Of a stretch of 64,000 nt of DNA, positions 11,549 to 27,107 are shown piece after piece. The DNA is from a virus, in the IMG/VR virus record IMGVR_UViG_3300023174_000096, positions 1-64,000 of that record; one strand, written 5' to 3'. A program made the translations under genes and the position numbers. The notes under the pieces are model-generated. The model was not told where the DNA came from. It saw only the letters and a list, made by a program, of their open reading frames with translations, and did no database searches. How positions within the stretch are numbered: the stretch's first letter is position 1; each line of letters starts with the position of its first letter.

Positions 11549-11821
11549 ATGGACCCCAACGTGAACGGGGCGAGGCGCGCGGTGGCGTGGGCTTTCCAAG
11601 TCCACGCCCTGCTCGACCACCTCCACCGACGTGACCCGAACAGCACCGGGTTCCACAAGCTCGCCGCTCGGGCGCTCGCCAACCGGGCGTGGGACGCCTT
11701 CGTGGAGATGGAGGCCAACCCCGAAGACCTCGCCCTCGACGATGACCTCGATGAAGCCCTCACCGGGGTCGAGAGGGTCTTCAACGCCTACGTCGGGCAG
11801 CGTGACGACCATGCTCAGTAG
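11549..11821 (+). CDS. Hypothetical protein
   Basis: SD ggaggt, abuts previous stop. Confidence 0.65.
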   Translation: MDPNVNGARRAVAWAFQVHALLDHLHRRDPNSTGFHKLAARALANRAWDAFVEMEANPEDLALDDDLDEALTGVERVFNAYVGQRDDHAQ

Positions 11822-12002
11822 CCCGGTCGCCGTCCGTGGCGGGGGCTACCAGAACGACCTCCGAACCTCCCCAAGGAGGGCACACAAGCTGGCCACCAGC
11901 GTGGTGGTGACGCTGGGGTTCCGTACCCGCCTGACGTGCAGGTGCCCCCGGTCATGCCCACCGAGAACCTTGGGCTTCGCGGCGGGGCGTGCGTCGAGGT
12001 GA
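11811..12002 (+). CDS. Diverged CLec variable-region (VR) mini-protein
   Basis: AVRGGGY...TLGFRTRL motif. Confidence 0.5.
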   Translation: MLSSPVAVRGGGYQNDLRTSPRRAHKLATSVVVTLGFRTRLTCRCPRSCPPRTLGFAAGRASR

Positions 12003-12109
12003 AAGCCGTATGGTTGTCCACCCATAACGCCCTGTCCTCGCGGTCAGACCGATGCGCTCAAATCTACGGCTTCCGAACCCACCTGCCAGTAAGGCAACCC
12101 CGAACGTGA
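11954..12109 (+). CDS. Diverged CLec VR mini-protein (51 aa)
   Basis: MPTENLGLRGGAC...IYGFRTHLPVRQPRT; stop overlaps next GTG. Confidence 0.55.
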   Translation: MPTENLGLRGGACVEVKAVWLSTHNALSSRSDRCAQIYGFRTHLPVRQPRT

Positions 12110-12276
12110 AGCCCACCACCAAGCCCTCCGACCTCCGCGTGTACCGCGGCGGCAGTTGGTACGGCCACGCACCGTCGTGGGTGCGCGCCGCGTCTCGCGA
12201 CACGCTCGGGCCTGCGGACCGTTACAGCAACATCGGGTTTCGGTGCGCCCTTCGGGGAAGGGAACCCCGAACGTGA
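12106..12276 (+). CDS. CLec/FGE VR mini-protein, family 1 (56 aa)
   Basis: LRVYRGGSWYGHAPSWVRAASRDTLGPADRYSNIGFRCAL. Confidence 0.8.
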   Translation: MKPTTKPSDLRVYRGGSWYGHAPSWVRAASRDTLGPADRYSNIGFRCALRGREPRT

Positions 12277-12536
12277 ACCCCACGGACAAGGCTATGTCCT
12301 CCCCGCTAGCGGTCGCGGTCGCCCAATTCGTCTACCACCTGCTGTGGTACTTGAATGTCCGCTCCACCGCAGTAGGACACTTCCGCTTCGCGCTGATCAC
12401 GGACGTACTGAGTACGGCGCTGTACGTCTCAATCATCAAACGCCTTGTCGAAGACGGGCGGCGCTCCCAATGGATCGGGCTGATGGTGGGCGGGTCCCTA
12501 GGGTCGTGGGTAGGGCTTCACCTGCCGCTGCTATAA
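12273..12536 (+). CDS. Small membrane protein
   Basis: Several hydrophobic segments; GTGA coupling. Confidence 0.6.
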   Translation: MNPTDKAMSSPLAVAVAQFVYHLLWYLNVRSTAVGHFRFALITDVLSTALYVSIIKRLVEDGRRSQWIGLMVGGSLGSWVGLHLPLL

Positions 12537-12563
12537 ACCCCGCATCCTAGGTAGGATGCCCCG

Positions 12564-12878
12564 ATGACCAGCAGCCGCATCGCGCGAGTTCTTACCGTAG
12601 GGGCCACCCTCGGTGCCGCCTACCGACTGCACGAAGAACCCCACAGCCCCGGAAAATTCTGGCACCTCGTCACCTGTGCCCTCGCCGCCATCTCCACCCA
12701 CCACCGGGGCGAACCCCCCCGGCTCAATCCCCACGAAACCGCCGCCTCCTACCTCGCCGTCCCAACGGCACTCCTCGCCTACCGCTACGAAACCACCGCC
12801 ACCAACGCAATCTGGATCGCCGCCGTACTCGCGTGGGCCGTCTGCGCTTACGTCAGCAACCGAAACGAAGATTCGTAG
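12564..12878 (+). CDS. Small membrane protein
   Basis: Hydrophobic segments. Confidence 0.55.
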   Translation: MTSSRIARVLTVGATLGAAYRLHEEPHSPGKFWHLVTCALAAISTHHRGEPPRLNPHETAASYLAVPTALLAYRYETTATNAIWIAAVLAWAVCAYVSNRNEDS

Positions 12879-12963
12879 CGCCGGGGGAACCCCCGCCCCC
12901 CCACGGGTGAGGTTTTGCCCCTAGCGGGATACCGCCTCCGACGACCCCGCCCCCCTCCCGACG

Positions 12964-13494
12964 CTACGTTCCTTCGATCAGCGCCCCGCGCACCTCGGCC
13001 AGCACCCGCTGACCCCACTCTTCCCGTGCCCCCACCGCCAGCAGGGCCTCCTTCCGGCTCTGCCCAGCGTACAGGCCCGACAGGAACGCCTCCACACGGT
13101 CCCGCTCCTCCCCCTCCCCGTACAGACCCACCAACAGGTCGCGGAGCTCCGTGTACCCCTCCCCCGTAGAGCTCAGTCCCACGGGGAGCTCGCCGTCGTC
13201 CGTCACCCCCTCGCGACTGTCCCTCAACCGTTCGCGACGGAGGTAGTTGGCCAGCACGCACCGGATCACGATGTGGACGTAGTGCCCGAAGGAGGATTTC
13301 TTGTGGTCCCAAGGGCACGAGCCACGGTTGCGAGCGAGAAGCCCACGGTAGATCTCTTGGAGGAACTCCTCGGGGTCGATGCCCTCCCGCACCAGCACCC
13401 CCGTGAAACCTCCCGCGTAGAACAACTTCCTCACCTCGTGGCCCCGCACCCCAAGGTCGATCCCCAGTGCCGTGCCCCCCACCCCACCGTTCAT
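12964..13494 (-). CDS. Putative phage sigma-70/ECF-like factor (region 2-like); start uncertain
   Basis: DPEEFLQEIYRGLL...WDHKKSSFGHYVHIVIRCVLANYLRRER resembles sigma region 2.2-2.4; C-terminal helix-turn-helix-like segment. Confidence 0.6.
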   Translation of the reverse strand: MNGGVGGTALGIDLGVRGHEVRKLFYAGGFTGVLVREGIDPEEFLQEIYRGLLARNRGSCPWDHKKSSFGHYVHIVIRCVLANYLRRERLRDSREGVTDDGELPVGLSSTGEGYTELRDLLVGLYGEGEERDRVEAFLSGLYAGQSRKEALLAVGAREEWGQRVLAEVRGALIEGT

Positions 13495-14078
13495 CCGCCG
13501 GGAGAGAGACCCCAGCAACACCCGCAGCGGGAGAGACGGGTTCCCCGGGAGAACCTTGGGAGCAGGTGCCCGACGAGAAAAAGTCCTCCGTCGCGGGGTA
13601 GTGTCAACCGACCAGTGGTCCCAAACAAACGCCAGCGTCATCACAGCCTCCGATTTTGGTTGCGTCCCAAACTTCCAACTTCGACACGGGTTCAGTCCCT
13701 TGGGGCATCAGGTCACCGCCAGACCCGTCCCCATCTCGCCCTTCGGGCGCTGGGAGGGGTGGGGCAACGACGAGATAGAGATGACGGTGATGGTCACGGT
13801 GCTCACCGACACACCCGGTGTCGGACACTCACCCGTGCGCCTCTCCCTCCCTGTGTCCCCTTCTAACAACCCCCTGTTTTCTCGGGATAACCCATTTACC
13901 GGGGTTTTGTTAGCCGTAATGGGGGGTGTCTGTCAACTTCCAAGGGCGTGTAACGGGGGTGGCGGGTGGTCCCAAGGTGAGGGCGGGGCAGGCCCAAGTT
14001 TCCCAAGCTCACGCCTCGGACCGTCCCCAAGTGACTGAGACGGCACCCCATGACACTATGGGTAGTGTAGTAAACGGT

Positions 14079-14294
14079 ATGCCGACCTACACCTACCAAT
14101 GTTCCAAGTGTTCCTCCCAGTACGAGCGGGTGCAGCGGATCAGTGACCCACCCGACGTGGTGTGTCCTGTCCCTGTGGGCGATCCGGGAGGTAGTGGAGA
14201 CGATCAGTGTGGCGGGGCGGTACGGAGGGTGATCGCGCCCGGTGGGGGAGGTTTCATCCTCAAGGGCGGGGGCTGGTACCGGGACGGGTACTGA
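14079..14294 (+). CDS. FmdB-family zinc-ribbon protein
   Basis: MPTYTYQCSKC...CP...CGG.VRRVI...FILKGGGWYRDGY. Confidence 0.85.
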   Translation: MPTYTYQCSKCSSQYERVQRISDPPDVVCPVPVGDPGGSGDDQCGGAVRRVIAPGGGGFILKGGGWYRDGY

Positions 14295-14306
14295 GGCGGG
14301 GTGGTG

Positions 14307-14498
14307 TCACTTCTTGGCGGGCGGGACGGTGGTGAAGTCACTGGCCGTGAAGTGTGACAGAGGTGACGGTGGCGGTGGTTCTTTCTTGTTGATGAAGCAC
14401 ACGGAGCACATGGTGGCTCGGGAGTGCAGGGCGAGTCGTCCGCACCGTTCGCACCGGGGATATTCCTCGGGTTCGTAGGCTGGGGGTCGTGTTGTCAT
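14307..14498 (-). CDS. Small Zn-finger protein
   Basis: CERC...CSVC; ATGA overlap with ATP-grasp gene. Confidence 0.55.
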   Translation of the reverse strand: MTTRPPAYEPEEYPRCERCGRLALHSRATMCSVCFINKKEPPPPSPLSHFTASDFTTVPPAKK

Positions 14499-15235
14499 CG
14501 GAAGGTCTTGTGTTCTGCGTAGTGGGCGTAGCTCTTCCACGCTGCGATAAGTAGCGCACCGGGGTTGGTGACCATGTCGAAGCGTCCTGCGGTGAGCACG
14601 CTGTTGACTTCGACGACGGCGGGGTGCCCTTTGTGGCACCATCCCACGTCGAGGACGTAGGCTCCGGGGGCTTCGGCCTTCCACGCCCGGTACGCTTTCT
14701 CGGCGTAGGCACGGAGTTCTGGGTTGTGGTCGGGGTCTTTACGGACGCCCCGGGGTCCGATGAAGAACCGTTCCTCGCGGCTGAAGTGCAGGTACTCTTG
14801 GGCGAGGACCGGGTAGTCGTCTGGGAACAGGCAGACGCTAGTGGCGGCGTACAGGAAACTCCTCGCGTGGAACGCCTTGGCTTCGTTGAGGGGCTTCACG
14901 AAGATTTTCTGTGTGCTACGGGGGTGTGAGCGTTCCCGTACCCGCAGTACGCCCAGCGTGGTTTTCCACACCCTTCGGTGGGCGAGGGGTTTGAGGGCCG
15001 TGGGGATGTCCACGTTGGGGTAGGGGGTCTTGAAGGTCCATTCGTAGATGGCCTTCACGGCTCCCGCGTCTCCTTTCACGGGGGTGTCGGGGGTGACGGT
15101 GCGGGGGAGTTTGTTACGGGCGAAGGGGATCACCCGGTAGCCTCGGCGGGTGAGGTCTGCTGCTACGAGGGCGCACGAGTTTGAGAGGTAGCCTTTCGTC
15201 GCGGTGCCCGCTTGTATGTACGCGGTGGGTGTCAT
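14495..15235 (-). CDS. ATP-grasp protein, R2K/DUF4343-like
   Basis: IFVKP..K.F, LAQEYL.F.REERFFI, AYVLDVG..VVEVN. Confidence 0.75.
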   Translation of the reverse strand: MTPTAYIQAGTATKGYLSNSCALVAADLTRRGYRVIPFARNKLPRTVTPDTPVKGDAGAVKAIYEWTFKTPYPNVDIPTALKPLAHRRVWKTTLGVLRVRERSHPRSTQKIFVKPLNEAKAFHARSFLYAATSVCLFPDDYPVLAQEYLHFSREERFFIGPRGVRKDPDHNPELRAYAEKAYRAWKAEAPGAYVLDVGWCHKGHPAVVEVNSVLTAGRFDMVTNPGALLIAAWKSYAHYAEHKTFR

Positions 15236-15333
15236 GGCGGGGTGTTACGCCCCGAAGGCCAGTACTTCGTATGTTTGGCGGGCTTGGGTGCCGGGGGCGG
15301 GCGTGCGCGGTAGGGGTTGCCCGTGGCGCGCTG

Positions 15334-15759
15334 TCAGTTGAGCAGGGAGGAGGGGTCGTTCTTGGGGAGGCTGCTGGCGGCGCGGATGAGGGCGTCCATG
15401 TCTGCCTCGGGTGCGTCGGGGGTGTCGTCCTCGTTGATCTCGTAGCCGTCTTCGTCTCGGCCCCACAGGGCGTAGGGGGACTCGTTGGCGTTGAGGAGGA
15501 ACAGGGCCGAGAGCTCCCCATCGGGTTCTTCCACCACGGCGACGGTGAACAGCGGGTGGCGGTGGACGGCGCGGACCTCCTCGGGCATCGAGCATTGGGA
15601 GAGCACCAGTCGCTTGCGGTCTGGGAGGTGGCACCAGCAGTCCCGGCTGACGTAGATGCGCTCTGGGAGGGTGGGGGCGAGTTTCCGGGCGAGGGTGATG
15701 AGGCGTTGCGCCCCGGTGAAGGCGAGGGCTGCGAGGAGGGTGCGAGTGTTGATCTTCAT
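15334..15759 (-). CDS. Hypothetical protein
   Basis: GGGCGTAA motif 9 nt upstream of ATG. Confidence 0.65.
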   Translation of the reverse strand: MKINTRTLLAALAFTGAQRLITLARKLAPTLPERIYVSRDCWCHLPDRKRLVLSQCSMPEEVRAVHRHPLFTVAVVEEPDGELSALFLLNANESPYALWGRDEDGYEINEDDTPDAPEADMDALIRAASSLPKNDPSSLLN

Positions 15760-15787
15760 GGGGGGTTGTTACGCCCGTGGCGGGGGG

Positions 15788-16711
15788 TCAGAAACCGAAC
15801 AGGTCGTCGAGGGAGGTGACGGTGTTGGGTTGGACGCAGTGGGGTGACAACCACAGACGCTCGCGGGATTTGTTCTCGTTGTCCCCGCGTCGGTTGTGCC
15901 CGCCGTGCCCTTCCCATGACACTTCCCGCCAGCCTTCGGGCATTGGGCGGTCGTCGTACCCGGCCAGCACGATGCGGACGGTGGGTGTGGCGTTGGCGAC
16001 GGCCCACTCGACCACCTTGTCGAACACGTCGGGGTCGTCGTCCTCCCCGTAGCACTTGCCGTCTCTCCCTTCGTGCGTGTAGGGGGGGTCGAGGAAGATG
16101 CCCGTGGGCAGTTTCCCGTGGAAGTTGTTGACGACGGAGTGTGATAGCGCCCGTGTGTAGTCCCCGCAGAGCACCCGCACCCGTCGCAGTCGGGCTTGGA
16201 GGTCTCGCATGTGTTGGTGGACATCCCGCGTCATCGCGTGGACGCCCTTGCCGTGTAGCCCTCCCGCACACATGGGCTTGCATCGTCGGGGAATGTCCAC
16301 GCACCACGCGCCCGTGAAGAAAGAGCTCATGCCCCACACCCACCACCCGGCGATCTTGGGGTCGCACCAATCGGGGTCTGCTTCCAGTTGGGCTCGGAGT
16401 TGGTCCCGGCGTTCCCACAGCCATCGGTGTCGGGCGTGGAGGTCGTTTTCCAGCACCGGGTGGTCCGCGTGGCGTGCGACGGCGTCCGGGTCTTGGGACA
16501 CGGCCCGCCAGAAGTTCGCGACGTACCCGTTGGCGTCGTTGATCGTCTCGGTCCCCTTGAACGGTGCGGGGCGAGCCAGCAGCACGGCGGCGCTGCCCGC
16601 GAACGGCTCGACGTAGTTGGTGACGTTGCCGAGGGCTTCCCACACGGTGTCGGCCACCATTGACTTGCCTCCCATGTAGGGGAACGGGGCTTTGAGGTCG
16701 GAGGTGCTCAT
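15788..16711 (-). CDS. DNA adenine methyltransferase (Dam/D12 class)
   Basis: PFPYMGGKS, YVEPFAGSAAV, FLDPPY. Confidence 0.9.
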   Translation of the reverse strand: MSTSDLKAPFPYMGGKSMVADTVWEALGNVTNYVEPFAGSAAVLLARPAPFKGTETINDANGYVANFWRAVSQDPDAVARHADHPVLENDLHARHRWLWERRDQLRAQLEADPDWCDPKIAGWWVWGMSSFFTGAWCVDIPRRCKPMCAGGLHGKGVHAMTRDVHQHMRDLQARLRRVRVLCGDYTRALSHSVVNNFHGKLPTGIFLDPPYTHEGRDGKCYGEDDDPDVFDKVVEWAVANATPTVRIVLAGYDDRPMPEGWREVSWEGHGGHNRRGDNENKSRERLWLSPHCVQPNTVTSLDDLFGF

Positions 16712-16723
16712 GGCGGTGGGGGG

Positions 16724-17797
16724 TCAGAAGCCGAACAGGTCGTCGATGGACGTTGGTGCGGTGGTGTGTCGGAGGCAGTGGGGTGAGAGCCACAGACGTT
16801 CCCGGTGCTGTTGGCTCCCCTTGTGGGATTGATTTGCCATGCCGCCCTTGAGGAATCCCTCTCGGTACCACTCGACGGCGGTCCAGCCTTGGGTTTCGAG
16901 TTCTTGGTGCTCCGTGTCGTAGCCCGCCAAGACGATTCGGTACTTGGGGTTGTCCCCGTTGACCTTGCACCACCGCCTCACGTCGCTGGCGATGGTGCCG
17001 CTGTCCGAAGCATAAAGATCTCCCGTGCGCACATCATCCGCATACGGGGGATCGAGGAAAACGCCCGCGTGTCCGCCTTGTCGCACCGGCAGGGTCTGCA
17101 ACGCGCCGCTGGTACACGCGCGCGTCCAGTCCCCATTGAGCACGCGGACGTGCCGCAGCCTCGCGGACAGGAACCGCAGCCAACGGGTGAGCTCTGGCAT
17201 CGTCATCGGGTGGTACTCGGGCTCCGCTCCCACACCCTCCTCGCGCAGTTGCGGGCGGTTCATCCCTTGTCCGTTGCCGACAAGGTGCGGGATTTGACGT
17301 GCCACACCACCGTTCTTCGACCGCTTCGTGATGCGCCCATCGTCACCGACGACCCACGGCCCATCGCCGCTGCACCACCCGCTTCCGATCCAGCAGGACT
17401 GCCCCCACGCCCACCAGCCCGCCATCTTGGCGTCGTAGAAGTCGGGGTCGCCCATGAGGTGTTCGAGTTGTCGCTCGCTGCGCCACTTCACGAGGGCGAG
17501 GTGACGGGCGTGCATATCGGCCTCGCACACGGGCCACGAGGCAGCTTCGGCCACCGCATCGGGGTCGCGGATGATGGCCCTCCATGCGTTGCAGAGCAGC
17601 CCGTCCATGTCGTTGACGGTCTCGCTGTGGTAGGGACGGTTCGCGGTGTGCGGGCGACGTAGCAACACGGCGAGGGAGCCCGCGAAGGGTTCGACGTAGT
17701 GCTCAACGTCACCCAGCGCGGTCCAGACGTGTTCCGCCGCGTCGGCTTTGCCGCCGAACCACGGCCACGGGGTCTTGTAGAGGTTGGTGAGTGTCAC
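16724..17797 (-). CDS. DNA adenine methyltransferase (Dam/D12 class), paralogue
   Basis: PWPWFGGKA, YVEPFAGSLAV, FLDPPY. Confidence 0.9.
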   Translation of the reverse strand: MTLTNLYKTPWPWFGGKADAAEHVWTALGDVEHYVEPFAGSLAVLLRRPHTANRPYHSETVNDMDGLLCNAWRAIIRDPDAVAEAASWPVCEADMHARHLALVKWRSERQLEHLMGDPDFYDAKMAGWWAWGQSCWIGSGWCSGDGPWVVGDDGRITKRSKNGGVARQIPHLVGNGQGMNRPQLREEGVGAEPEYHPMTMPELTRWLRFLSARLRHVRVLNGDWTRACTSGALQTLPVRQGGHAGVFLDPPYADDVRTGDLYASDSGTIASDVRRWCKVNGDNPKYRIVLAGYDTEHQELETQGWTAVEWYREGFLKGGMANQSHKGSQQHRERLWLSPHCLRHTTAPTSIDDLFGF

Positions 17798-17813
17798 GGG
17801 CGTACCTTACGCC

Positions 17814-17860
17814 CTAGAAGCCGAACAGGTCGTCGAGGGTGATGGGTGTCGTGACGGGGG
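17814..17860 (-). pseudogene. Orphan C-terminal remnant (..TPITLDDLFGF*) of a third methyltransferase-like gene
   Basis: Same terminal peptide/nucleotides as both adjacent MTases; upstream space is occupied by a gene on the opposite strand. Confidence 0.55.
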
Positions 17861-17924
17861 CGGGGCGGGCGTAAGGGCGTGTGCCCCTGCCTGCACGTCC
17901 GTGCCCCGGGGCCAAGGAGTACCC

Positions 17925-19478
17925 ATGAAGCTCATTCACCGTGCCCGATGGAGCGATGCCGAGAAGCTCGCCGTGATGGCGGCGTACAACGCCACTGACA
18001 CTGCCGAGGAGTTCTTCCGGCACTTCCGGGCGTCCGTCCCCACCGCGCCTGTCCGCACCACCAAGGCGTACATCACCTACCTCTGCGAGACGATCCGCGA
18101 GGACCGCCGCCCCGTGTACGAGGACTTGAGTCGGATGCTCCAGCAGGAGCTCCGCAAGGAGAAAGAGAGGCTCGCGGCGCTCAAGGAGGCGCAGGCTCCC
18201 AAGGTCGAACCGCCCAAGGTCGAGGCTCCCAAGGTCGAGGCTCCCAAGGCTTCCATCCCCGACTACCTCGACGAGATCAAGGACGGGCCGATGGATGTCC
18301 CCGTCAAGACGCCCTCGCCCAACTTCGTGGGGGATGCCCGACCGAAGCCGACGCCTCACGCTGCCGTCCCTCGCCACTACCGGGTGCCCGTGTACACGCA
18401 GATGGACTTCTCCTATGCGGACATCGTGGCGTTCTTCGCCGTGCCCGAGGTGATGGTGAAGGCGGCTCTCGACGGCGGGGTGATCCCGTCGCACGAGGGG
18501 TCCGTGCGTCGCGAGGTGTTCATGGCCCTGCACGAGTCGATGTCCGATGGCTTGGACTTCGACGCGGCGTGCGACGTGATCCGTGAGAAGTTTCGTGAGA
18601 AGCCCATCGTGCCCGCCGAGAAGCTGTACGCTCCCACCGTCGAGAAGTCTCCCATCGAGCCCGACCCCTACTTGAAGGGACCCTTCCCCATCGAAAAGAA
18701 GCAAGAAGCCCCGACGCTGGACGACCCGAACTCCGACGCGATGGACGCCTTCACCGTCGAGGAAGCTGCCGCTGCGCTGGGCTTGACGGACACGGGCATC
18801 CTGCTCACGGCCATCAACCGCGATGGGTTCCCCGCCGTGAAGATCGACGGCAAGTGGTGCATCACCCGCGCCGACCTCAAGCGCGTGCGCGCCCTGCGGG
18901 AGTCGGGCTTCACCGTCGAGGAAGCCCTCAAGCGTGCGGGCGCACCTGTGCCCCCGACCTCCGTGCCCAGCGAGACTTCGTGGACCGACCACATCGCCCC
19001 GCTGACCCCGGAGGAAGCGGGTGAGACGGACGCGAGGCCCGACGTGGTGGACCGTGACCCGGTGTGGGAGATGGTCTCGCTGGAAGATCTGGCCAGCGAG
19101 CTCCACATTCACGTCGCCAGCGTGTACCAAGGGGTGTCCGACCACCCGCTGGTGCGGAAGCACGGCGACGATCTTGGCGTCCCCCGCCAAGCCTTCGACC
19201 TCATCGAAGAGAAGTGGCGGAAGTGCCGCAATCTCTCGGCGGCGTTCGACTTCGCCGCCGAGAAGCTCGGTGTCCTCCCCCCGCCCCCTGCGGAGATCTA
19301 CGTCGCAGAGATGGACGAGCGTCAGTGGGCTCTGGAGGCTCTCGGTGAGGGTGTCTTCACCGTCGAGCAAGCCCTCAAGATCGCGGGGGTGACGGACACC
19401 CCTCGCAACCGCTGGCCGCTGGGGCTTCTCGGGCGGGGCGAGATCACCCTCGCCCAAGCCGCGAAGCTGCTCCGTTAG
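17925..19478 (+). CDS. Multi-HTH (MerR/excisionase-like repeats) DNA-binding protein
   Basis: FTVEEAAAALGL..AINRDGFPAVKIDGKWCI and two related repeats; PKVEAP linker; SD aaggag. Confidence 0.7.
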   Translation: MKLIHRARWSDAEKLAVMAAYNATDTAEEFFRHFRASVPTAPVRTTKAYITYLCETIREDRRPVYEDLSRMLQQELRKEKERLAALKEAQAPKVEPPKVEAPKVEAPKASIPDYLDEIKDGPMDVPVKTPSPNFVGDARPKPTPHAAVPRHYRVPVYTQMDFSYADIVAFFAVPEVMVKAALDGGVIPSHEGSVRREVFMALHESMSDGLDFDAACDVIREKFREKPIVPAEKLYAPTVEKSPIEPDPYLKGPFPIEKKQEAPTLDDPNSDAMDAFTVEEAAAALGLTDTGILLTAINRDGFPAVKIDGKWCITRADLKRVRALRESGFTVEEALKRAGAPVPPTSVPSETSWTDHIAPLTPEEAGETDARPDVVDRDPVWEMVSLEDLASELHIHVASVYQGVSDHPLVRKHGDDLGVPRQAFDLIEEKWRKCRNLSAAFDFAAEKLGVLPPPPAEIYVAEMDERQWALEALGEGVFTVEQALKIAGVTDTPRNRWPLGLLGRGEITLAQAAKLLR

Positions 19479-20044: not shown

Positions 20045-20079
20045 ACCTCGCCGGGGGGATAGGGGGCGTAACGTCTGTC

Positions 20080-20247
20080 ATGAAGACCCAACCTCACCCG
20101 TCTCCTGCTTGTGGCGGGGGCTGGAACCTCCAGTACAACGCCTACTACCGTGCGTGGGCGCGTGGGCGGGGACTCACTCGGAGCGAGACACCCGTGACCG
20201 TGGGTTTCCGGGTCGCCCTGTCTTGGCGACGGCCACTGGGGGGCTGA
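20080..20247 (+). CDS. Diverged CLec VR mini-protein (55 aa)
   Basis: CGGGWNLQY...TVGFRVAL; GGGCGTAA 8 nt upstream. Confidence 0.6.
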   Translation: MKTQPHPSPACGGGWNLQYNAYYRAWARGRGLTRSETPVTVGFRVALSWRRPLGG

Positions 20248-20292
20248 CATGGACCCCCGTATCGCCCTCGATCAAGCCGCGAAGCTGCTTCG

Positions 20293-20526
20293 ATGACCCC
20301 GAAGGTCCCCACCAGCACCGTCACCGTTACGGGCGTGAACGTCGAAGGGTGCAACGATTGCCCCTTCCGCGACGACTCGGTCGCCATAGACGGGCACCCC
20401 TCGGTGTGCCGCCTCACGGGCCGTCAATTCGGTGTGTACCCGTACACGACCGGGGCATGGGAGACGTGCCCGCTGAAGCACGGTCCCGCCGTGGTCGCCC
20501 TGCTAGTAAACCCCGCCAAGGGGTAA
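20293..20526 (+). CDS. Small Cys-rich protein
   Basis: CNDCPF..C..CPL. Confidence 0.65.
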   Translation: MTPKVPTSTVTVTGVNVEGCNDCPFRDDSVAIDGHPSVCRLTGRQFGVYPYTTGAWETCPLKHGPAVVALLVNPAKG

Positions 20527-20624
20527 TCAGCCCGTTCCGCCAGCCCGTTCCGCAATCTCGCGGATCACGCCCTTCGACCGAATACCCAGCCGGGAAGTGA
20601 GCCCGTTAGGGCGTAAGGACTGAC

Positions 20625-21131
20625 ATGGACCCCCGTATCGCCCTCGCCCAAGAGTACGACGCCCTCGCGGAGATCACCGACCAGTATTACCGCGAACACG
20701 CCACCCGCCAAGAGCTCTGGCAGCAGGAAGCTCGCGTCAACCGTGCCCTCGCCGCCGTGTACCGGCACGAAGCCGAGAGTGACCTTCTCCTCCGCGCCGT
20801 CCGCGCCCTCGCGGGGCTCGACCCGGACGCCCTCAAGTCCATCACGCCCGAAGCGATGCACCGGGTGCTGGGTAGGCGGGGATGGACGAAGACCGGGGAG
20901 ATTCCGTGGGCTGGCGATCCGTCTCGCGTCGGGTTCCACACTTACGATCACCCCACGGCCCTCGGCTGCGGCGGCGACCCGATGGGGGTGATCCCGGCGG
21001 TGCTGGTGCCCGAAGGCCCGGATGCCCATGATTACCCGCGTCGGGTGATGGAGTGGGCCACGGACGTAGCGGCCCGACACGGTGACGTGGCCCCTGCGGA
21101 GGTGCTCGCGGAGGCGTGGGCGAAGCCGTGA
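20625..21131 (+). CDS. Hypothetical protein
   Basis: GGGCGTAA 8 nt upstream. Confidence 0.7.
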   Translation: MDPRIALAQEYDALAEITDQYYREHATRQELWQQEARVNRALAAVYRHEAESDLLLRAVRALAGLDPDALKSITPEAMHRVLGRRGWTKTGEIPWAGDPSRVGFHTYDHPTALGCGGDPMGVIPAVLVPEGPDAHDYPRRVMEWATDVAARHGDVAPAEVLAEAWAKP

Positions 21132-21289
21132 AGTCGTCGGTCAAAGCCTTTCGCGTCCGCCGCAGTAGCCCTTGGCTCTACGACGATCCGTCGTGGGTGC
21201 TCGCGTCTGCTCGCCATTCGCGCGTGCCCTCGGGATGTAACAGTGCGCTGGGTTTTCGCACGCACCTACCGGGAAAGATGCCGCGATGA
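21128..21289 (+). CDS. CLec VR mini-protein (53 aa)
   Basis: FRVRRSSPWLYDDPSWVLASAR...ALGFRTHL. Confidence 0.7.
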   Translation: MKSSVKAFRVRRSSPWLYDDPSWVLASARHSRVPSGCNSALGFRTHLPGKMPR

Positions 21290-21465
21290 ACCCCACCCCC
21301 AAGCAACCCAAGCCTGACTACCTCTACCGAGGGTTTCGCGGCGGGGCGTGGGACTACTCGACCGCCGCCAACGTGCGCGCGGCCTATCTCTTCGGCAGCA
21401 CGCCGACGCTCCGTGACTACCTCATCGGGTTTCGCTGCGCGCTGCGGGTAAGGGAACCCCGGTGA
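21286..21465 (+). CDS. CLec VR mini-protein, family 2 (59 aa)
   Basis: RGFRGGAWDYSTAANVRAAYLFGSTPTLRDYLIGFRCAL. Confidence 0.8.
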   Translation: MNPTPKQPKPDYLYRGFRGGAWDYSTAANVRAAYLFGSTPTLRDYLIGFRCALRVREPR

Positions 21466-21845
21466 GGCCCAGCAAGAAGCTCCTCGCGGAGAAAATTCGT
21501 GAAGCCTTGTCGGGCTACCTCGGCACGGTGAAAGACTCGACGACCATTCAGTCTGTCCGAGACCAAGTGCTATCGGCGTTGCCGACGAACTTCTCGGGGT
21601 CATTGGACGTGTCGCAGGACCCACTCGACCCCACCAAGATCAACGTGGTGGCGCACGTCCCGTTGACCTACGTCCAAGTGACATACATCGCAGAGCCTTC
21701 CGGGGACCACCACTACGTCGGCGGGTGTTGGCTCTCTGACGACCCCAGCAGGGTTCGCCCCTGCGCCGGGAGCAGGGTGGGTCCGACGAATCACACGGTC
21801 TCGGTGGGCTTCCGAGTGTGCCTACGGGGGAGGATGTTGCGATGA
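21462..21845 (+). CDS. Unknown ~80-aa domain fused to a diverged CLec VR cassette
   Basis: C-terminal YVGGCWLSDDPSRVR...SVGFRVCLRGR. Confidence 0.65.
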   Translation: MRPSKKLLAEKIREALSGYLGTVKDSTTIQSVRDQVLSALPTNFSGSLDVSQDPLDPTKINVVAHVPLTYVQVTYIAEPSGDHHYVGGCWLSDDPSRVRPCAGSRVGPTNHTVSVGFRVCLRGRMLR

Positions 21846-22030
21846 ACCCCACCTCCAAGCCCACCGCCGACAACCTTCCCCGCGTGTTTCGCGGCGGGTC
21901 GTGGAACATCACGTCCGCCACCTTCGTGCGCGCGGCGTTTCGCGACGACTGCACGCCGACGATCCGTGTCATCAACCTCGGGTTTCGCTGCGTCCTTCGG
22001 GGAAGGGAACCCTTGAAGGTGACCCCGTGA
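21842..22030 (+). CDS. CLec VR mini-protein, family 2 (62 aa)
   Basis: RVFRGGSWNITSATFVRAAFRDDCTPTIRVINLGFRCVL. Confidence 0.8.
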   Translation: MNPTSKPTADNLPRVFRGGSWNITSATFVRAAFRDDCTPTIRVINLGFRCVLRGREPLKVTP

Positions 22031-22257
22031 GCTTCGGCACCGGGAAGACAAGTTCTCGGCTGACCGAGATCGTCCTGCACACAACGGCGGATGCCCGCGC
22101 GAGGGCGGGGACCCTTCAGTACAAGGGTGGAAGCTGGTCGAACCGGGAACAAAGCTGGATGCAGATCACCCAGCGCCACGGCAACCCCGCGTACTACAGC
22201 AGCGTGGGACTGAGCTTCCGGGTTCACCTACCGGGACGGGCACCCCGTGGCGATTGA
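22027..22257 (+). CDS. Diverged CLec VR mini-protein (76 aa)
   Basis: YKGGSWSNREQSW...VGLSFRVHLPGRAPR. Confidence 0.6.
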   Translation: MSFGTGKTSSRLTEIVLHTTADARARAGTLQYKGGSWSNREQSWMQITQRHGNPAYYSSVGLSFRVHLPGRAPRGD

Positions 22258-22598
22258 AGGGGCTATCCGCCCCCTACGGTGAGATGACCGACGACTTCCT
22301 GCGCCGCCTACGGGAGCGCCTCGATCCCGCCCACGCTGAAGAGCTCGCGCGCTCGTACCACGAGGCGTGCGACCCCCGGTCCCTATCTTGGGACCAGCTA
22401 TCCTTGGACCGACGTACCCGTCTGACGGAGGCCATGCGCGTGCTGATTGAACACATCTTGGAGGAGCACCCCCACCTTTGGGCCGTGAAGTACGAGCTCG
22501 TCGTGTGCGAGCGGTGCGGTGTCGTCCGTCGCCGGGACGGCAAGAACCCCTCGTGCCCCCGCAAACCCCCCAGTGTCTTACCTCGACAGGAGCCCTGA
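22254..22598 (+). CDS. Hypothetical protein with C-terminal Zn ribbon
   Basis: HLW...CERCGVVRR..C. Confidence 0.6.
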   Translation: MKGLSAPYGEMTDDFLRRLRERLDPAHAEELARSYHEACDPRSLSWDQLSLDRRTRLTEAMRVLIEHILEEHPHLWAVKYELVVCERCGVVRRRDGKNPSCPRKPPSVLPRQEP

Positions 22599-22982
22599 GT
22601 GCCGAAGAAGTCCTCGCCGTCCCGGGTGTCACCCACGGACTCTCTTGACCTACGCATCCGTGAGTTGGCCGACCTCCCCGGTGGCTGGTACACCAACCCG
22701 GAGGGGGAGCGTCTCGGCAAAGCTCCCTCTTGGAAGGCCCTGTTGACCCTGCGGCGCTTCTCCCTCGCGTGGATGCCCGACGACGTGCGCGAAGACCTCC
22801 AGCCCGACGTGGAAGGCGGGGCGTCCCTGTTCTACGACGGGGACCGGGACGTGGTGCGCGTAAGGTTCTCGGACGACGGGACCGTGACCGCTGAACTGCG
22901 TGGTGAGAGTCAACCTCTCGACCTCACCGACATCACGCGCGCGGCGCAAGCCGTCCATGACCTCCTGCACAAGCGGAAGTGA
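22599..22982 (+). CDS. Hypothetical protein
   Basis: SD aggag; RIRELADLPGGW. Confidence 0.65.
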   Translation: MPKKSSPSRVSPTDSLDLRIRELADLPGGWYTNPEGERLGKAPSWKALLTLRRFSLAWMPDDVREDLQPDVEGGASLFYDGDRDVVRVRFSDDGTVTAELRGESQPLDLTDITRAAQAVHDLLHKRK

Positions 22983-22986
22983 CGCC

Positions 22987-23418
22987 ATGAGACTCACCTA
23001 CAACGCCGAAGCCAACGCCGCCTACCTGCACGTCAACCCGGACGGCACCCGTCCCAGTGAGTCCGTGCGACGGGACACCCACGGCCCGTTCGTGATCGAC
23101 TACGACGCGGACGGGAAGCTCTTGGGCATCGAGGTGCTCGATGCCCGCACGGTGCTGCGAGAGGCCACCCTCACTGCGAAGGACTTCCGCACGGTGCCCC
23201 CCACCGACGAGGAGGTGGACGCGCACGACGACAATGGAGGGGACTTCTTGGTCAGCTTCGACCACCGCTCTGGTGGCCCGTGTTGCCGGGTGATGGGAGG
23301 GGAGACGGCCAAGAAGTACGCCGCCTACCAGCGAAAGAACCCCCGACTCCATGTGTGGTACTGGCGGTCGATTGATTGGGACGGCAACCTCGTGCCGTGG
23401 CCCGTGGTGAAGCCATGA
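22987..23418 (+). CDS. DUF2283-like domain protein with C-terminal extension
   Basis: MRLTYNAEANAAYL...IDYDADGKLLGIEVLDA. Confidence 0.7.
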   Translation: MRLTYNAEANAAYLHVNPDGTRPSESVRRDTHGPFVIDYDADGKLLGIEVLDARTVLREATLTAKDFRTVPPTDEEVDAHDDNGGDFLVSFDHRSGGPCCRVMGGETAKKYAAYQRKNPRLHVWYWRSIDWDGNLVPWPVVKP

Positions 23419-23597
23419 CCGTCTACATCCCCGTCTCGTGTACCTGCGGGCCGTACTGGAGTGTCGTCCCGCCGCCTCCGTGCCCGGTGCATCGCGTCCC
23501 GTCGCTCTCGCAGCCCACTCCCATATCTCCGAAAGACCTCGCGGCGATGTACCGCCGGATGGCCGACGCGCTCGATCCGCCGACCAACGACAAGTGA
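23415..23597 (+). CDS. Small hypothetical protein
   Basis: CTC..W.VVPPPPCPVH; ATGA coupling. Confidence 0.55.
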   Translation: MTVYIPVSCTCGPYWSVVPPPPCPVHRVPSLSQPTPISPKDLAAMYRRMADALDPPTNDK

Positions 23598-23642
23598 TCG
23601 GGCGTAACAGAGGGGCCACCCAAGGCAAGGAGACCCCCCCCA

Positions 23643-23951
23643 ATGTCCAAGGCAAGCCTCAGCACCCCCGACACCTACGGTCTCGTCATGATCACCTCCG
23701 GTCCTTTCAAGGGCTGGGTGGGTGAGTACGACGACAATGACGAGGAGACGGGGTGCTACATCGTCTATCCCCTGTACCCCGTGGACTGCTGCCCGTACAA
23801 GCTGTACCGCTCCACGAGCATCCGCACACTCACCGAGGATGAGTTGGAGAATGCGGAAAAGCGCAAACGTGCCCTTCACGCTCTCGGTGGGGAGATTCCT
23901 GCACCGACGCATGAAAGTCAGTTACACCCGGACGCCACGCTCCGTGTGTAG
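23643..23951 (+). CDS. Small SH3/KOW-like protein
   Basis: VMITSGPFKGWVG; SD aaggag. Confidence 0.6.
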   Translation: MSKASLSTPDTYGLVMITSGPFKGWVGEYDDNDEETGCYIVYPLYPVDCCPYKLYRSTSIRTLTEDELENAEKRKRALHALGGEIPAPTHESQLHPDATLRV

Positions 23952-23954
23952 GGC

Positions 23955-24497
23955 ATGAACCCGTATCAGCATCTCGCCCAGCAAGCCCGGTACGTCTGGA
24001 CCGCCCGTGATGGTCTCGTCCACGAGTACGCATGGGCGATCCCGTGCGACGCGGCCATCGCGGCCATAGTTGGGCTCGGCAAGCCCGTCGTCGAGCTCGG
24101 GGCCGGGAACGGGTACTGGGCCAGCCTCATCGCGGAGGCTGGCGGCACCGTCGAGTGCTACGACCGCGAACCCGGAAGGCACATTCGCGGCGAAAAGAGC
24201 AAGCTCTGGCACCCCGTGTCGGAGGGGACGTGCGACGTGATCACCCGCGCGCACAAGGACCACGCGCTCCTGCTGGTGTGGCCCCCCTACGACAAGCCGA
24301 TGGGCACGGAGTGCCTCCTTCGCTTCATGGAGGCGGGCGGGAGCACCCTCGTGTACGTCGGTGAGGGCTCCGGGGGATGCACCGCCGACGACGAGTTCCA
24401 TCGCATCCTCGACGAGCACTGGAGCGAGGAGCAGTGCGTCTGCCTTCCTCAGTGGTCGGGGATTCACGACGGGCTCTCTGTGTATCGTGCGAAGTGA
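23955..24497 (+). CDS. Class I SAM-dependent methyltransferase-like protein
   Basis: VVELGAGNGYWA, LLLVWPPY, YVGE. Confidence 0.75.
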   Translation: MNPYQHLAQQARYVWTARDGLVHEYAWAIPCDAAIAAIVGLGKPVVELGAGNGYWASLIAEAGGTVECYDREPGRHIRGEKSKLWHPVSEGTCDVITRAHKDHALLLVWPPYDKPMGTECLLRFMEAGGSTLVYVGEGSGGCTADDEFHRILDEHWSEEQCVCLPQWSGIHDGLSVYRAK

Positions 24498-24850
24498 TGG
24501 GCACGAGCAAGTTTGAGGGCCACGCCCTGTGCGTGGCCGACTACGAGGAGAACTACATCTACGGGCTCGGGACCGACGAGACCGTGATGAAGGGCATCAG
24601 CGCCTTCGTCCTCGACGCAGGGGGTTCAACCGTCCGTGCGTCGGCCCCTATGGCGTTTGAGGACGAGGTGGACGAGGACGGCTACTTCAAGGACGTGAGG
24701 GACGAGTACCGCGAACTCACCGCCCGCAAGGCCCTCCCGGTGATGCGGGTGAAGGTGACCGTGGAAGTAGAGCCCCTGTCAGACGAAGAGTCCGCGAGGG
24801 TGTGGGAAGATCACTGCGCCAAGCTGCGGGCCAAGCGGGGTGAACCGTGA
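24497..24850 (+). CDS. Hypothetical protein
   Basis: Coupled ORF. Confidence 0.65.
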   Translation: MGTSKFEGHALCVADYEENYIYGLGTDETVMKGISAFVLDAGGSTVRASAPMAFEDEVDEDGYFKDVRDEYRELTARKALPVMRVKVTVEVEPLSDEESARVWEDHCAKLRAKRGEP

Positions 24851-25290
24851 CCCTGCGACGGATTCACTCCCCCCAAGAAGAACTGCTGGAACAAGCCCTG
24901 CGGGACGACGCCCGTCACTTGGACGAGATCATCGCCATCAGTGAAGCCCTCGGAGCGCCCGTGGACTCCTCGGGACCGGAGATCTTGGAGATCGCACGGG
25001 AGTTGGTACGCCGTGTCGAGGCGATGGATTCCTTGCTGCGCCAGCACCTCCCCAAGTGCGGCGAGTGCGGCGCTATCGCCACCCGGACGTACATCCACAC
25101 GGTGGGACAGCGGTGTTATGCGTGCGACGACGAGGGGTGCATCACGGAGCACTTCTGCGCGCAGTGTCACCAAGTCGCCCATGACACGGGCGAGCCCTGC
25201 CCCTTCTGCGGTTCCACCGAGTACACTCCCCGCGTAGAGGCCGACCTCACGAATCTACCCTTCGCCAACGTGCGACGTGCGACGTTCTGA
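24847..25290 (+). CDS. Zn-finger hypothetical protein
   Basis: CGEC, CAQC, CPFC. Confidence 0.65.
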   Translation: MTLRRIHSPQEELLEQALRDDARHLDEIIAISEALGAPVDSSGPEILEIARELVRRVEAMDSLLRQHLPKCGECGAIATRTYIHTVGQRCYACDDEGCITEHFCAQCHQVAHDTGEPCPFCGSTEYTPRVEADLTNLPFANVRRATF

Positions 25291-25339
25291 CGGGGGCGAT
25301 GTTGGAAGACCCCGAAGACCTGTAGGGCGTAACGGGGGT

Positions 25340-25546
25340 ATGGCAAGATCACGAAAGACCCCCGCTCCCTACGAAACAAACCCGACCGACACCCTCTACC
25401 GCGTCTACCGCGGCGGCTGTTGGTACGACAACGCACCGTCGTGGGTGCGCGCCGCGTCTCGCGGCGCGAACGTGCCTGCGTACCGTGACAACAACTTGGG
25501 GTTTCGGTGCGCGCGCGGGGGTTCCGAAAGGAAGGTGAAACCGTGA
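25340..25546 (+). CDS. CLec VR mini-protein, family 1 (68 aa)
   Basis: RVYRGGCWYDNAPSWVRAASRGANVPAYRDNNLGFRCAR; GGGCGTAA 7 nt upstream. Confidence 0.8.
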   Translation: MARSRKTPAPYETNPTDTLYRVYRGGCWYDNAPSWVRAASRGANVPAYRDNNLGFRCARGGSERKVKP

Positions 25547-25725
25547 GCAACCCCAAGACCGACATCCTCTACCGCGTCCTCCGCGGCGGCGGTTGGTACA
25601 TCCGCGAACCGTCGTGGGTGCGCGCGGCCATTCGCAGCACGAACGAGCCTGCGAACCGTGGCCTCAACTTGGGGTTTCGGTGCGCGCGCGGGGGTTCCGA
25701 AAAGAGGTCGGGGCGTAATACGGGC
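25543..25725 (+). CDS. CLec VR cassette, family 1; no stop, reads in frame into the FGE scaffold gene
   Basis: RVLRGGGWYIREPSWVRAAIRSTNEPANRGLNLGFRCAR. Confidence 0.7.
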
Positions 25726-26577
25726 ATGAAGATCGAACTGGCTTTGTACTCAACCCAAGAGCAACCGAAGTCCACCGCCCAGTGGGCGTGCGCCCGGTCC
25801 CCCCACTACCACTGGGAATCTGCCTCGCTGATTACCTCCCCCGACACGATCTGGGGATTCATGGACGAGGTGATGTCCGTGGACGCGGACGCGCGGGGGG
25901 ACACCGTAGCCGTTCGTTCTAGGTGGGAAGACCGCGAGTGGACCCAATACGTCCACCCGACCTACGGGGTCGTCCCCAAGCTCTTCGTGGACGAGGACGG
26001 CAAAGTGATCGAGGAATGGCCGACTCTTGAGGAGATCGGAGGCCCGTGGGTAGCGACGCACGTCCTGCCCGATGGGCACGGGATGCCCCTCTGCTACGTC
26101 CCCCCCACGGAGGGTTTCCAGATGGGAGACGCGATCTCTTCGACCAAAGATCGACGGGTCGTAGACGTTCTGGGCGGGTTCGTGGCCCTCACCCCCACCA
26201 CCATCGAGCAGTGGGCTTGGTATTGCGCGGCCACCGGGAAGCCGGTCCCCGAAGTCAACACCGAGAATCGCCACCACCCGGTGGTCGAGGTGGACTTTTG
26301 GCAGTCCCGCGACTTCGCAGAGTGGGCGGGTCTGGAGCTTCCCACGGAGGAACAGTGGGAGCACGCCGCGCGTGGGCGGGATGGGCGCAAGTTCCCGTGG
26401 GGCAACGAAGAACCGGGAGCCTACCCGGACCCGAAGTGTCACTGGTCTGGTGGCGACAGCGAGGGTGCCGATGGAGTCGCGCCCGTTTTTGAGCGTCCCG
26501 ATGGTGCCTCCCCCTACGGGTGCCTCGACATGAGCGGGAACGTCTGGGAGTGGTGCGACTCCCTGTACTACAGGTGA
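25726..26577 (+). CDS. FGE-sulfatase/CLec-fold protein truncated before the C-terminal variable region
   Basis: FQMG, HPVVEVDF, LPTEEQWEHAARG.DGRKFPWG, SPYGCLDMSGNVWEWC then stop; lacks RVxRGGSW...GFR. Confidence 0.85.
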   Translation: MKIELALYSTQEQPKSTAQWACARSPHYHWESASLITSPDTIWGFMDEVMSVDADARGDTVAVRSRWEDREWTQYVHPTYGVVPKLFVDEDGKVIEEWPTLEEIGGPWVATHVLPDGHGMPLCYVPPTEGFQMGDAISSTKDRRVVDVLGGFVALTPTTIEQWAWYCAATGKPVPEVNTENRHHPVVEVDFWQSRDFAEWAGLELPTEEQWEHAARGRDGRKFPWGNEEPGAYPDPKCHWSGGDSEGADGVAPVFERPDGASPYGCLDMSGNVWEWCDSLYYR

Positions 26578-26581
26578 AACC

Positions 26582-26761
26582 GTGAGTGATCCCAAGACCG
26601 CCGACACCCGTCTCCGCGTGTATCGCGGCGGGTCGTGGTGGAACAAGACCACCACCTATGTGCGTTTGGGGGTGAGCAGCGTTGACACGCCCACGAACCG
26701 TCTCTTCGACTTGGGGTTTCGTTGCGCGCTGCGGGGATGTGAGAGGAAGGTGAAACCGTGA
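26582..26761 (+). CDS. CLec VR mini-protein, family 2 (59 aa)
   Basis: RVYRGGSWWNKTTTYVRLGVSSVDTPTNRLFDLGFRCAL. Confidence 0.8.
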   Translation: MSDPKTADTRLRVYRGGSWWNKTTTYVRLGVSSVDTPTNRLFDLGFRCALRGCERKVKP

Positions 26762-26934
26762 GCAACCCCAAGACCGACACCCTCCTCCGCGTCTACCGCG
26801 GCGGTAGCTGGGACAACTTCGATCCGTCGTGGGTGCGCGTCGCGCTCCTTAGCTGGAGCGGGCCGACGTACCGGGACATCGACCTCGGTTTTCGGTGCGC
26901 GCGTGTGGGTTCCGAAAGGAAGGTGAAGCCGTGA
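26758..26934 (+). CDS. CLec VR mini-protein (58 aa)
   Basis: RVYRGGSWDNFDPSWVRVALLSWSGPTYRDIDLGFRCAR. Confidence 0.8.
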   Translation: MSNPKTDTLLRVYRGGSWDNFDPSWVRVALLSWSGPTYRDIDLGFRCARVGSERKVKP

Positions 26935-27107
26935 GCAACCCCAAGACCGACACCCGTCTCCGCGTCTTCCGCGGCGGTAGCTGGGGCTACCACGCACCGT
27001 CGTGGGTGCGCGCCGCGTCTCGCTACTCGCTCGTGCCTGCGAACCGTGACAACCTCTTGGGGTTTCGGTGCGCACGCGGGGGTTCCGAAAGGAAGGTGAA
27101 GCCGTGA
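26931..27107 (+). CDS. CLec VR mini-protein, family 1 (58 aa)
   Basis: RVFRGGSWGYHAPSWVRAASRYSLVPANRDNLLGFRCAR. Confidence 0.8.
   Translation: MSNPKTDTRLRVFRGGSWGYHAPSWVRAASRYSLVPANRDNLLGFRCARGGSERKVKP

Follow-up and report, generated by a model that had tools for sequence, protein, structure and literature searches.

The stretch of DNA analyzed here (hereafter the window) is the first 64 kb of the 105,516-bp IMG/VR virus record IMGVR_UViG_3300023174_000096, which has a G+C content of 65–70%. Between 11.8 and 27.1 kb, and on the + strand in every case, it carries a family of short cassettes that resemble the variable regions (VRs) of genes targeted by diversity-generating retroelements (DGRs). 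In Pfam the cassettes match positions ~204–255 of the FGE-sulfatase family (PF03781), and the original prediction, made from the letters of the window alone, was therefore right in placing them at the C-terminal segment of an FGE-type C-type lectin (CLec) domain, the part homologous to the template repeat (TR) of a DGR. The open reading frame (ORF) at 25507–26577 matches positions 67–194 of the same family and terminates 7 codons past the motif GNVWEW. The full domain of ~255 positions is thus not contained in one polypeptide; a truncated body gene and a set of separately encoded tips, in separate frames and ORFs, share it between them.

Cassettes and body gene at the locus

The cassettes (Table 1) were counted with a family-specific profile, built from the eight clearest copies and run on all six frames of the whole 105,516-bp record. 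The profile returned eight copies with strong scores (12106, 21286, 21842, 25340, 25543, 26582, 26758, and 26931; E 1e-27 to 1e-34), three that are degenerate (E 2e-8 to 4e-5) and one marginal copy at 20080–20247 (E 0.02) whose orthologue is conserved in a related phage, so that 12 of the 14 cassettes originally listed are backed either statistically or by comparison. Their coordinates and number essentially stand, except that the two copies in 11811–12109 are without statistical support (E 1.2 and 1.9); the C-terminal GFRTHLPVRQPRT of the second of these, at 11936–12109, is typical of the family and recurs in cassettes of related contigs. Most of the cassettes are also stand-alone mini-ORFs, as had been proposed, and three (25543, ~21678, and ~22100) are not. 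The profile found no cassette in 27.2–105.5 kb of the record and no TR-like (all-AAC) copy anywhere in its 105 kb.

Table 1. Cassettes and body gene in the window. Mismatches are counted against the TR of the bacterial DGR described in the next section (26 adenine sites, 90 non-adenine sites).
Feature	Position	Strand	Evidence
Marginal, degenerate cassette (..RGGGY..LGFRTRL..)	11811..12002	+	Profile E 1.9, not significant; listed only for abutting the next two copies
Degenerate cassette mini-ORF, 57 aa, end GFRTHLPVRQPRT	11936..12109	+	Profile E 1.2, not significant; stop overlaps GTG start of next copy
Fresh VR mini-gene, 56 aa, GTGA start-stop overlap	12106..12276	+	Pfam FGE-sulfatase 202–254; 13/26 A, 1/90 non-A, p 2.3e-9
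Diverged cassette mini-ORF, 55 aa, ATGA start	20080..20247	+	Profile E 0.02; orthologue in SXGQ01497405.1
Degenerate cassette mini-ORF, 57 aa	21116..21289	+	Profile E 1.1e-7; stop overlaps ATG of 21286 cassette
Eroded cassette mini-gene, 59 aa, ATGA start	21286..21465	+	Profile E 2.9e-27; 20/26 A, 28/90 non-A
Degenerate cassette, C-terminus of 127-aa ORF 21462–21845	~21678..21845	+	Profile E 2.4e-8; 42/90 non-A
Eroded cassette mini-gene, 62 aa	21842..22030	+	Profile E 3.2e-30; Pfam 203–254; 23/90 non-A
Degenerate cassette, C-terminus of 118-aa ORF 21901–22257	~22100..22257	+	Profile E 3.7e-5
Fresh VR mini-gene, 68 aa	25340..25546	+	12/26 A, 3/90 non-A, p 4e-7
VR cassette without own stop, in frame into body ORF	25543..~25725	+	13/26 A, 7/90 non-A
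Body: FGE/CLec scaffold without C-terminal segment, end ..GNVWEWCDSLYYR*	25726..26577	+	PF03781 positions 67–194, E 4e-32
Eroded cassette mini-gene, 59 aa, +1 frame relative to body	26582..26761	+	30/90 non-A; Shine-Dalgarno tract AGGTGAAACC before GTGA start; orthologue in SXGQ01372846.1
Intermediate VR mini-gene, 58 aa	26758..26934	+	14/26 A, 13/90 non-A
Fresh VR mini-gene, 58 aa	26931..27107	+	16/26 A, 3/90 non-A, p 2e-10

Relatives of the phage were found with the pattern of the conserved cassette scaffold, with N at the variable positions. They comprise a 166,764-bp viral contig (G001, rated 39% complete) and contigs of the metagenome sets Ga0129333 and SXGQ01, and together these provide 55 distinct cassettes. 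The split layout is present in at least four other phage contigs. All five phage bodies, from at least four lineages, end 5–7 aa past GNVWEW and have tips after them, which indicates that the layout is conserved and is no assembly accident. A search of IMG/VR with the exact junction pattern gave no match.

Variation at template adenines

When 185,579 species genomes were scanned for the scaffold pattern, the sole match was the metagenome-assembled genome (MAG) “uncultured delta proteobacterium KT_bin-2017,” which is of a Polyangia-type myxobacterial kind. Its contig C74 (L026; 2,470 bp) carries a reverse transcriptase (RT), a TR, and a convergent full-length FGE protein that bears a VR. The RT (ORF 2–1138; PF00078, E 3.6e-14) has LGNLTSQ and YMDD motifs and is of the DGR type, and the TR is an untranslated repeat ~25 nt downstream of it that reads RVNRGGSWNNNEPSWVRAASRNTNEPANRNNNIGFRCAR. 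A second VR lies in a 571-aa caspase-FGE protein on contig C407, and the MAG holds 37 FGE domains, nearly all of them full length. The template that had been reconstructed from the window cassettes, compared by eye, equals this real TR at 104 of 108 bases, the TR having TCT for AAT and ATC for TTG. The same MAG (G002) also contains, at C145:5881–6237, a second and partial RT copy (88% identical over residues 284–377) followed by the first ~44 nt of TR-like sequence, which looks like a degenerate second DGR locus.

The comparison between cassettes and TR extends over 116 nt, of which 26 are A and 90 are non-A sites. For the four copies from which adenine-specific variation had originally been proposed (12106, 25340, 25543, and 26931), 12–16 of the 26 adenines differ from the TR as against 1–7 of the 90 other sites (Fisher p 6e-6 to 2e-10), so the proposal holds against a real template. 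The other four measured window cassettes, leaving aside 26758, differ at 16–20 of 26 A and 23–42 of 90 non-A sites. A clean signature is therefore seen in only four to five of the 14 cassettes, while the others are eroded (13–42 non-A mismatches). Cassettes form a continuum of 0 to 49 non-A mismatches to the TR, which fits repeated writing followed by drift. The NNC pattern noted in the four named copies is likewise real and holds over the 55 distinct cassettes, in which nine codons take all four bases at positions 1 and 2 and keep C at position 3 in 46–53 of 55 cases.

The signature can be described more closely with the 25 cassettes that have at most 7 non-A mismatches, which we call fresh. 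These differ from the TR at 380 of 650 A sites (58%) and at 99 of 2250 sites elsewhere (4.4%), and where the TR has adenine they have A 270 times, T 168 times, G 167 times, and C 45 times. The 250 codons derived from AAC specify solely N, Y, D, S, G, L, F, I, V, R, H, C, and A, with K, E, Q, M, and W absent, and all 25 tips are distinct from one another.

It is conceivable that no retroelement is involved and that duplication, diversifying selection and codon bias together make the NNC pattern, as the G+C content at third codon positions (GC3) of about 0.8–0.9 leads one to expect C-ending codons and the codons that vary map to the fold's ligand face. Against this stand the five amino acids missing from the AAC-derived codons and the scaffold codons, which hold rare T- and A-ending forms (CCT, CGT, TTT, TCT, AGT) across phages. 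Moreover, the best copies match the actual TR at every non-A base. The match and the missing amino acids refute this explanation for the fresh copies. Codon bias and selection cannot produce the adenine-only pattern, and we regard an origin of this kind as extremely improbable.

At the 3' end of the VR/TR homology lies a GC-rich element, resembling the initiation of mutagenic homing (IMH) element, that differs between VR and TR. Cassettes of the 25340/25543/26931 type and both VRs of the MAG read GCGCGCGCGGGG, the TR reads GCGCGCGAGG, and homology stops there; cassette 12106 has a different 3' end.

The variation can also be followed between close relatives. Relative to the related contig SXGQ01497405.1, the syntenic upstream tip (25340) has changes at 20 of the 26 A sites and at 7 of the 90 others beside a body that is ~99% identical (25750–26580), and the downstream tip is a different cassette altogether. 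The DNA surrounding the body is 70–89% identical, and such high identity of the body amid diverged flanks points to either a recent exchange or an unusually strong constraint on the body sequence. The phage is present in lake and freshwater metagenomes of 13 studies. Public runs were compared as assembled (Logan) contigs, which end at repeats and among which short variant contigs may be cross-mapped paralogues; with this reservation, a contig of one run (X6) has a different VR at 26758. In two other freshwater runs there are contigs in which 21459 is joined directly to 22984, and in one of them 21282 is also joined to 21839. The cassette cluster at 21–22 kb, along with two ORFs behind it, is therefore present or absent depending on the strain.

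Source of the retroelement

The original prediction placed the RT and TR outside the window, either elsewhere in the phage or in a host, and of these alternatives the evidence favors the bacterial element. Relatives of the MAG, with genomes of 7–12 Mb, carry RTs 63–79% identical to that of C74, a further homologue (P0008) is 98% identical, and the named homologues belong to Polyangiales, Polyangiaceae, and Sandaracinaceae MAGs, with contigs reaching 606 kb. Within the 2.9 million contigs of IMG/VR, the best RT relative is 41% identical over its length and up to 50% identical over short segments, and the scaffold is absent from all 80 IMG/VR RT loci examined. Given the bacterial relatives, the named myxobacterial homologues and the lack of a close RT in IMG/VR, the retroelement is cellular, and of the type found in multicellular bacteria with putative caspase-linked sensor targets.

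A cellular element that matches the cassettes could still be a bystander. The phage may instead have its own DGR (RT, TR, and accessory protein) in the remaining three quarters of its genome, outside the sampled DNA, the cassettes being ordinary remote targets of that element and the bacterial TR merely a close relative. This explanation would suit the characterized DGRs, whose action stays inside one replicon and for which remote targets in the same genome are on record (PMC10907252), and also the incompleteness of the sampled phage records. We found no RT in the 105-kb record or in its 167-kb relative G001, which CheckV rates 24% and 39% complete, respectively. The IMG/VR results given above also speak against it, as does the agreement among phages: lineages that are only 70–90% identical in DNA all match one TR with differences at just 0–4 of 90 non-A sites, while bacterial sister DGRs differ at 16 or more. 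A TR in a shared host is a simpler account of this agreement than identical TRs on each phage, and overall we consider a phage-borne DGR unlikely. The specificity of the match is seen from the sister DGRs themselves (RT 79% and 67% identical), whose TRs differ from the fresh tips at 16–29 non-A sites. Three other bacterial TRs matched the eroded cassettes no better, the TR of G013 being compared ungapped and one codon out of register.

The tips may also have been acquired from the host and not written on phage DNA at all, by homologous recombination or gene conversion from host DGR targets that were already diversified. Two or more VRs of this TR exist in the MAG, and a conversion tract with the conserved scaffold at its ends would likewise show differences at A sites only. 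Cassettes do move by duplication, with arrays gaining and losing units between strains. What makes this account doubtful is that identity stops at the TR-homologous segment on both sides, where the phage linker upstream and the Shine-Dalgarno (SD) junction downstream are unlike host genes, and that none of the 25 fresh tips is repeated. As a weak additional point, many tips agree with the TR in the CTC codon ahead of CGCGTC, which reads AAA or AAC in the two host VRs. Conversion from host targets therefore seems to us quite unlikely.

Mini-gene anatomy and translation signals

Each mini-gene consists of a short Pro/Thr/Lys-rich linker and exactly the TR-covered part of the FGE-type CLec domain. 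The VR is accordingly a separate ORF of 54–70 aa and not the C-terminus of a complete ligand-binding protein, the body ending earlier in all five contigs, and gene callers elsewhere predict stand-alone proteins of this kind and of the same length. The body ends in ..GNVWEWCDSLYYR-TGA and is directly followed by AGGTGAAACC-GTGA, with which the first tip after the body begins, in the +1 frame. Each of the two tips that follow lies in the -1 frame relative to the tip before it, with unit lengths of 176 and 173 bp (3n-1) and a junction of the form GGAAGGTGAA(A/G)CC-GTGA. A programmed +1 frameshift joining the body to the first tip (AGG-TGA ahead of the tip frame) was considered and is not favored, since the junction has a start codon behind an SD tract and each later tip lies in the -1 frame.

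The GTGA and ATGA overlaps of start and stop codons described from the window alone are real. Across the window and related contigs (six contig sets), 60 of 64 cassettes have an ATGA or GTGA start that overlaps a TGA stop, preceded by a purine-rich SD-like tract, and the junction sequences that hold these signals are of several unlike classes. Retention of SD, start, and stop overlap across such unlike junctions is to be expected of translationally coupled small genes and not of silent DNA. The view that the cassettes are a family of translationally coupled mini-genes is therefore supported by their sequence signals, and these, along with the truncated bodies in five contigs, lend support to the proposal that the tips may be produced as free micro-proteins.

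The cassettes might nevertheless be untranslated, either as silent donors for a recombinational switching of tips similar to vls and pilS or as decaying duplicates of a broken FGE gene. They do form tandem arrays with units of 173–176 bp, several copies are degenerate, and contigs both break and vary in copy number at the arrays. A donor system is difficult to reconcile with the absence of an intact full-length expression copy from all five phage contigs, in which the bodies are truncated at the same place, and untranslated DNA in general with the translation signals just described. Selection was assessed on four orthologous pairs of eroded cassettes, of which only one (the 20080 cassette and its counterpart in SXGQ01497405.1) had diverged enough to be informative, with a dN/dS of 0.37 at a dS of 0.90; some other eroded tips are also conserved as orthologues in related contigs. 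We consider it very unlikely that the cassettes are untranslated.

One cassette is arranged differently. The copy at 25543 is fused in frame to the N-terminus of the body through a linker of ~15 aa, the same fusion is found in SXGQ01497405.1, and the product of 25543–26577 could be a circularly permuted complete domain. An AlphaFold2 model of the 25543–26574 fusion made from a 2-row alignment was unusable, with a mean pLDDT of 31.

Structure model and proposed mechanism

The association of a body with a separate tip was modeled for body residues 100–283 and tip 26931. The complex reached an ipSAE of 0.93, compared with 0.04 for the best control, and the ipSAE mark applied is one that 58 of 80 solved complexes attain, as do 2 of 110 mismatched pairs. 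Three runs of the model agree in at least 95% of contacts, with a partner pLDDT of at least 77. Body and tip together make up a fold known from single chains, so the high score may be due to resemblance to solved FGE/CLec structures and not to binding. In this fold it is the tip that closes the CLec domain and provides its ligand face, and a body without a tip should accordingly be incomplete.

We conclude that the locus is likely to specify a two-piece lectin with interchangeable, retroelement-written tips. The separate body gene (25726–26577) would encode the rest of the domain, ending where template homology begins, and each tip peptide would dock into it non-covalently, so that one scaffold could carry many binding specificities at once. 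The cassettes 12106, 25340, 25543, and 26931, and less cleanly 26758, would be true DGR VRs. Their template, copied with errors specific to adenine, would be the same as, or very close to, the TR of the cellular DGR in the myxobacterial MAG. The RT and TR of the host most likely act in trans on phage DNA during infection, by which the phage would gain hypermutation without encoding the machinery. Older tips would have lost their match to the template and may persist as fixed or decaying specificities. Writing of the phage mini-gene tips in trans by a host DGR, on a split body and tips, is the best explanation we can offer for these sequences, and we hold it with moderate confidence.

What the lectins are for can be addressed more tentatively. 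A myxobacterial phage might exploit the DGR of its host through homing signals in the mini-genes, and since the host diversifies caspase-linked sensors with the same DGR, the body-plus-tip lectins, which are without an effector, could be decoys that track the host's sensor repertoire and not adsorption proteins. We consider this possible but the less probable outcome.

Several points weigh against writing by a host DGR in trans. The existence of the tip peptides is a prediction from sequence signals. As the record is only 24% complete, a phage-borne RT and TR may lie in the remainder, and the TR contig is itself a 2.47-kb piece of a MAG of 1849 contigs. Outside the TR and VRs, the MAG and the phage share only a few short and weak DNA matches (E 3e-6 or worse), and no CRISPR-like match between them was found, so the shared TR and VRs come with no independent link to the host. 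A cassette and part of its flanks are identical at two loci ~56 kb apart in G001 (L001 ~673–960 and L002 ~1161–1445), which implies that tips spread by duplication and not only by retrohoming. In the literature we found no precedent for a DGR that acts across replicons on an infecting phage. Finally, the canonical hairpin of DGR targets, a GC stem of 7–10 bp with a 4-nt GRNA loop (PMC3240598), was not found downstream of the cassettes when seven VR 3' flanks were folded. These contain only 4-bp TTCC-GAAA-GGAA stems or 6-bp CCCTTC-GGG-GAAGGG stems with a 3-nt loop, and they fold about as shuffled sequences do (z about 0). The VRs of the MAG itself are likewise without the canonical hairpin, which may therefore not be a defining feature of this clade.

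Neighboring genes

The cassettes lie among DNA-modification and accessory genes, including two D12-class adenine methyltransferases, an R2K ATP-grasp protein, a 2H phosphoesterase, and a helix-turn-helix (HTH) protein, and no tail module is recognizable in this neighborhood. The two methyltransferase genes are adjacent on the minus strand (15788–16711 and 16724–17797), and both of them, as well as a frame upstream (17814–17850), end in a common C-terminal motif [ST][LI]DDLFGF that may be a shared tag or a peptide similar to those that bind the sliding clamp. Farther downstream, 29781–40397 is one ORF of 3,538 aa with a coding-like GC3 of 0.88.

Comparison with known systems

To our knowledge, DGRs are the only natural machines for targeted protein hypermutation in microbes, and they are thought to act on complete target genes in their own replicon. 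The system presented here departs from this picture in two respects: the target is divided, precisely at the edge of the template homology, between a single constant body and many tips with genes of their own, and the VRs are located on phage genomes while the matching template and RT are found only in a bacterial lineage. If phage genes are indeed written by a host element, phages and hosts would be interacting in a new way, TRs would link phages to their hosts, and phages would offer a direct test of the putative “antigen sensor” immunity that DGRs provide to multicellular bacteria (PMC10907252). A search of full-text literature gave no description of VR-only genes, of split CLec targets, or of host DGRs that act on phage genes. 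Standard DGR surveys would miss such mini-genes; one large survey discards targets shorter than 300 nt and bases its diversity analyses on a 20-kb stretch around the RT (PMC8144416).

The closest likeness is to the FGE-type CLec targets of DGRs, namely the TvpA class of Treponema denticola, and to the prototype DGR target, Mtd of Bordetella phage BPP-1. In common with these, the VR is the C-terminal, ligand-facing segment, the template codons are rich in AAC, mismatches are confined to template adenines, and a GC-rich element marks the 3' end of VR/TR homology. Here, in contrast, the VR is a gene of its own of 54–70 aa, a separate and truncated gene accounts for the remainder of the fold, there are about a dozen tips per body, neither RT nor TR was found in the sampled phage DNA, and the canonical GRNA hairpin is missing.

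The arrays also recall the silent-cassette systems of antigenic variation, vlsE/vls of Borrelia and pilE/pilS of Neisseria, in which promoterless, untranslated donors supply one complete expression locus. Tandem arrays of partial genes with conserved frameworks and variable patches, beside a related longer gene, are common to both. The differences are that each unit here has an SD tract, a start, and a stop, that a complete expression copy is lacking, and that the variation is templated at adenines and not recombinational.

The DGR whose TR matches the phage tips is best compared with the clade-5 cellular DGRs of multicellular bacteria, which diversify putative antigen sensors and of which one, in Thiohalocapsa PB-PSB1, acts in trans on remote targets (PMC10907252). 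Trans activity was recognized there from remote VRs that match the TR at all non-A sites (PMC10907252). As in that group, the matching DGR is cellular, in this case myxobacterial, and its own targets are full-length FGE proteins, one of them fused to a caspase. Trans action in Thiohalocapsa PB-PSB1 takes place within one bacterial genome (PMC10907252), whereas the matching VRs described here are located on phage genomes, in the form of stand-alone mini-genes.

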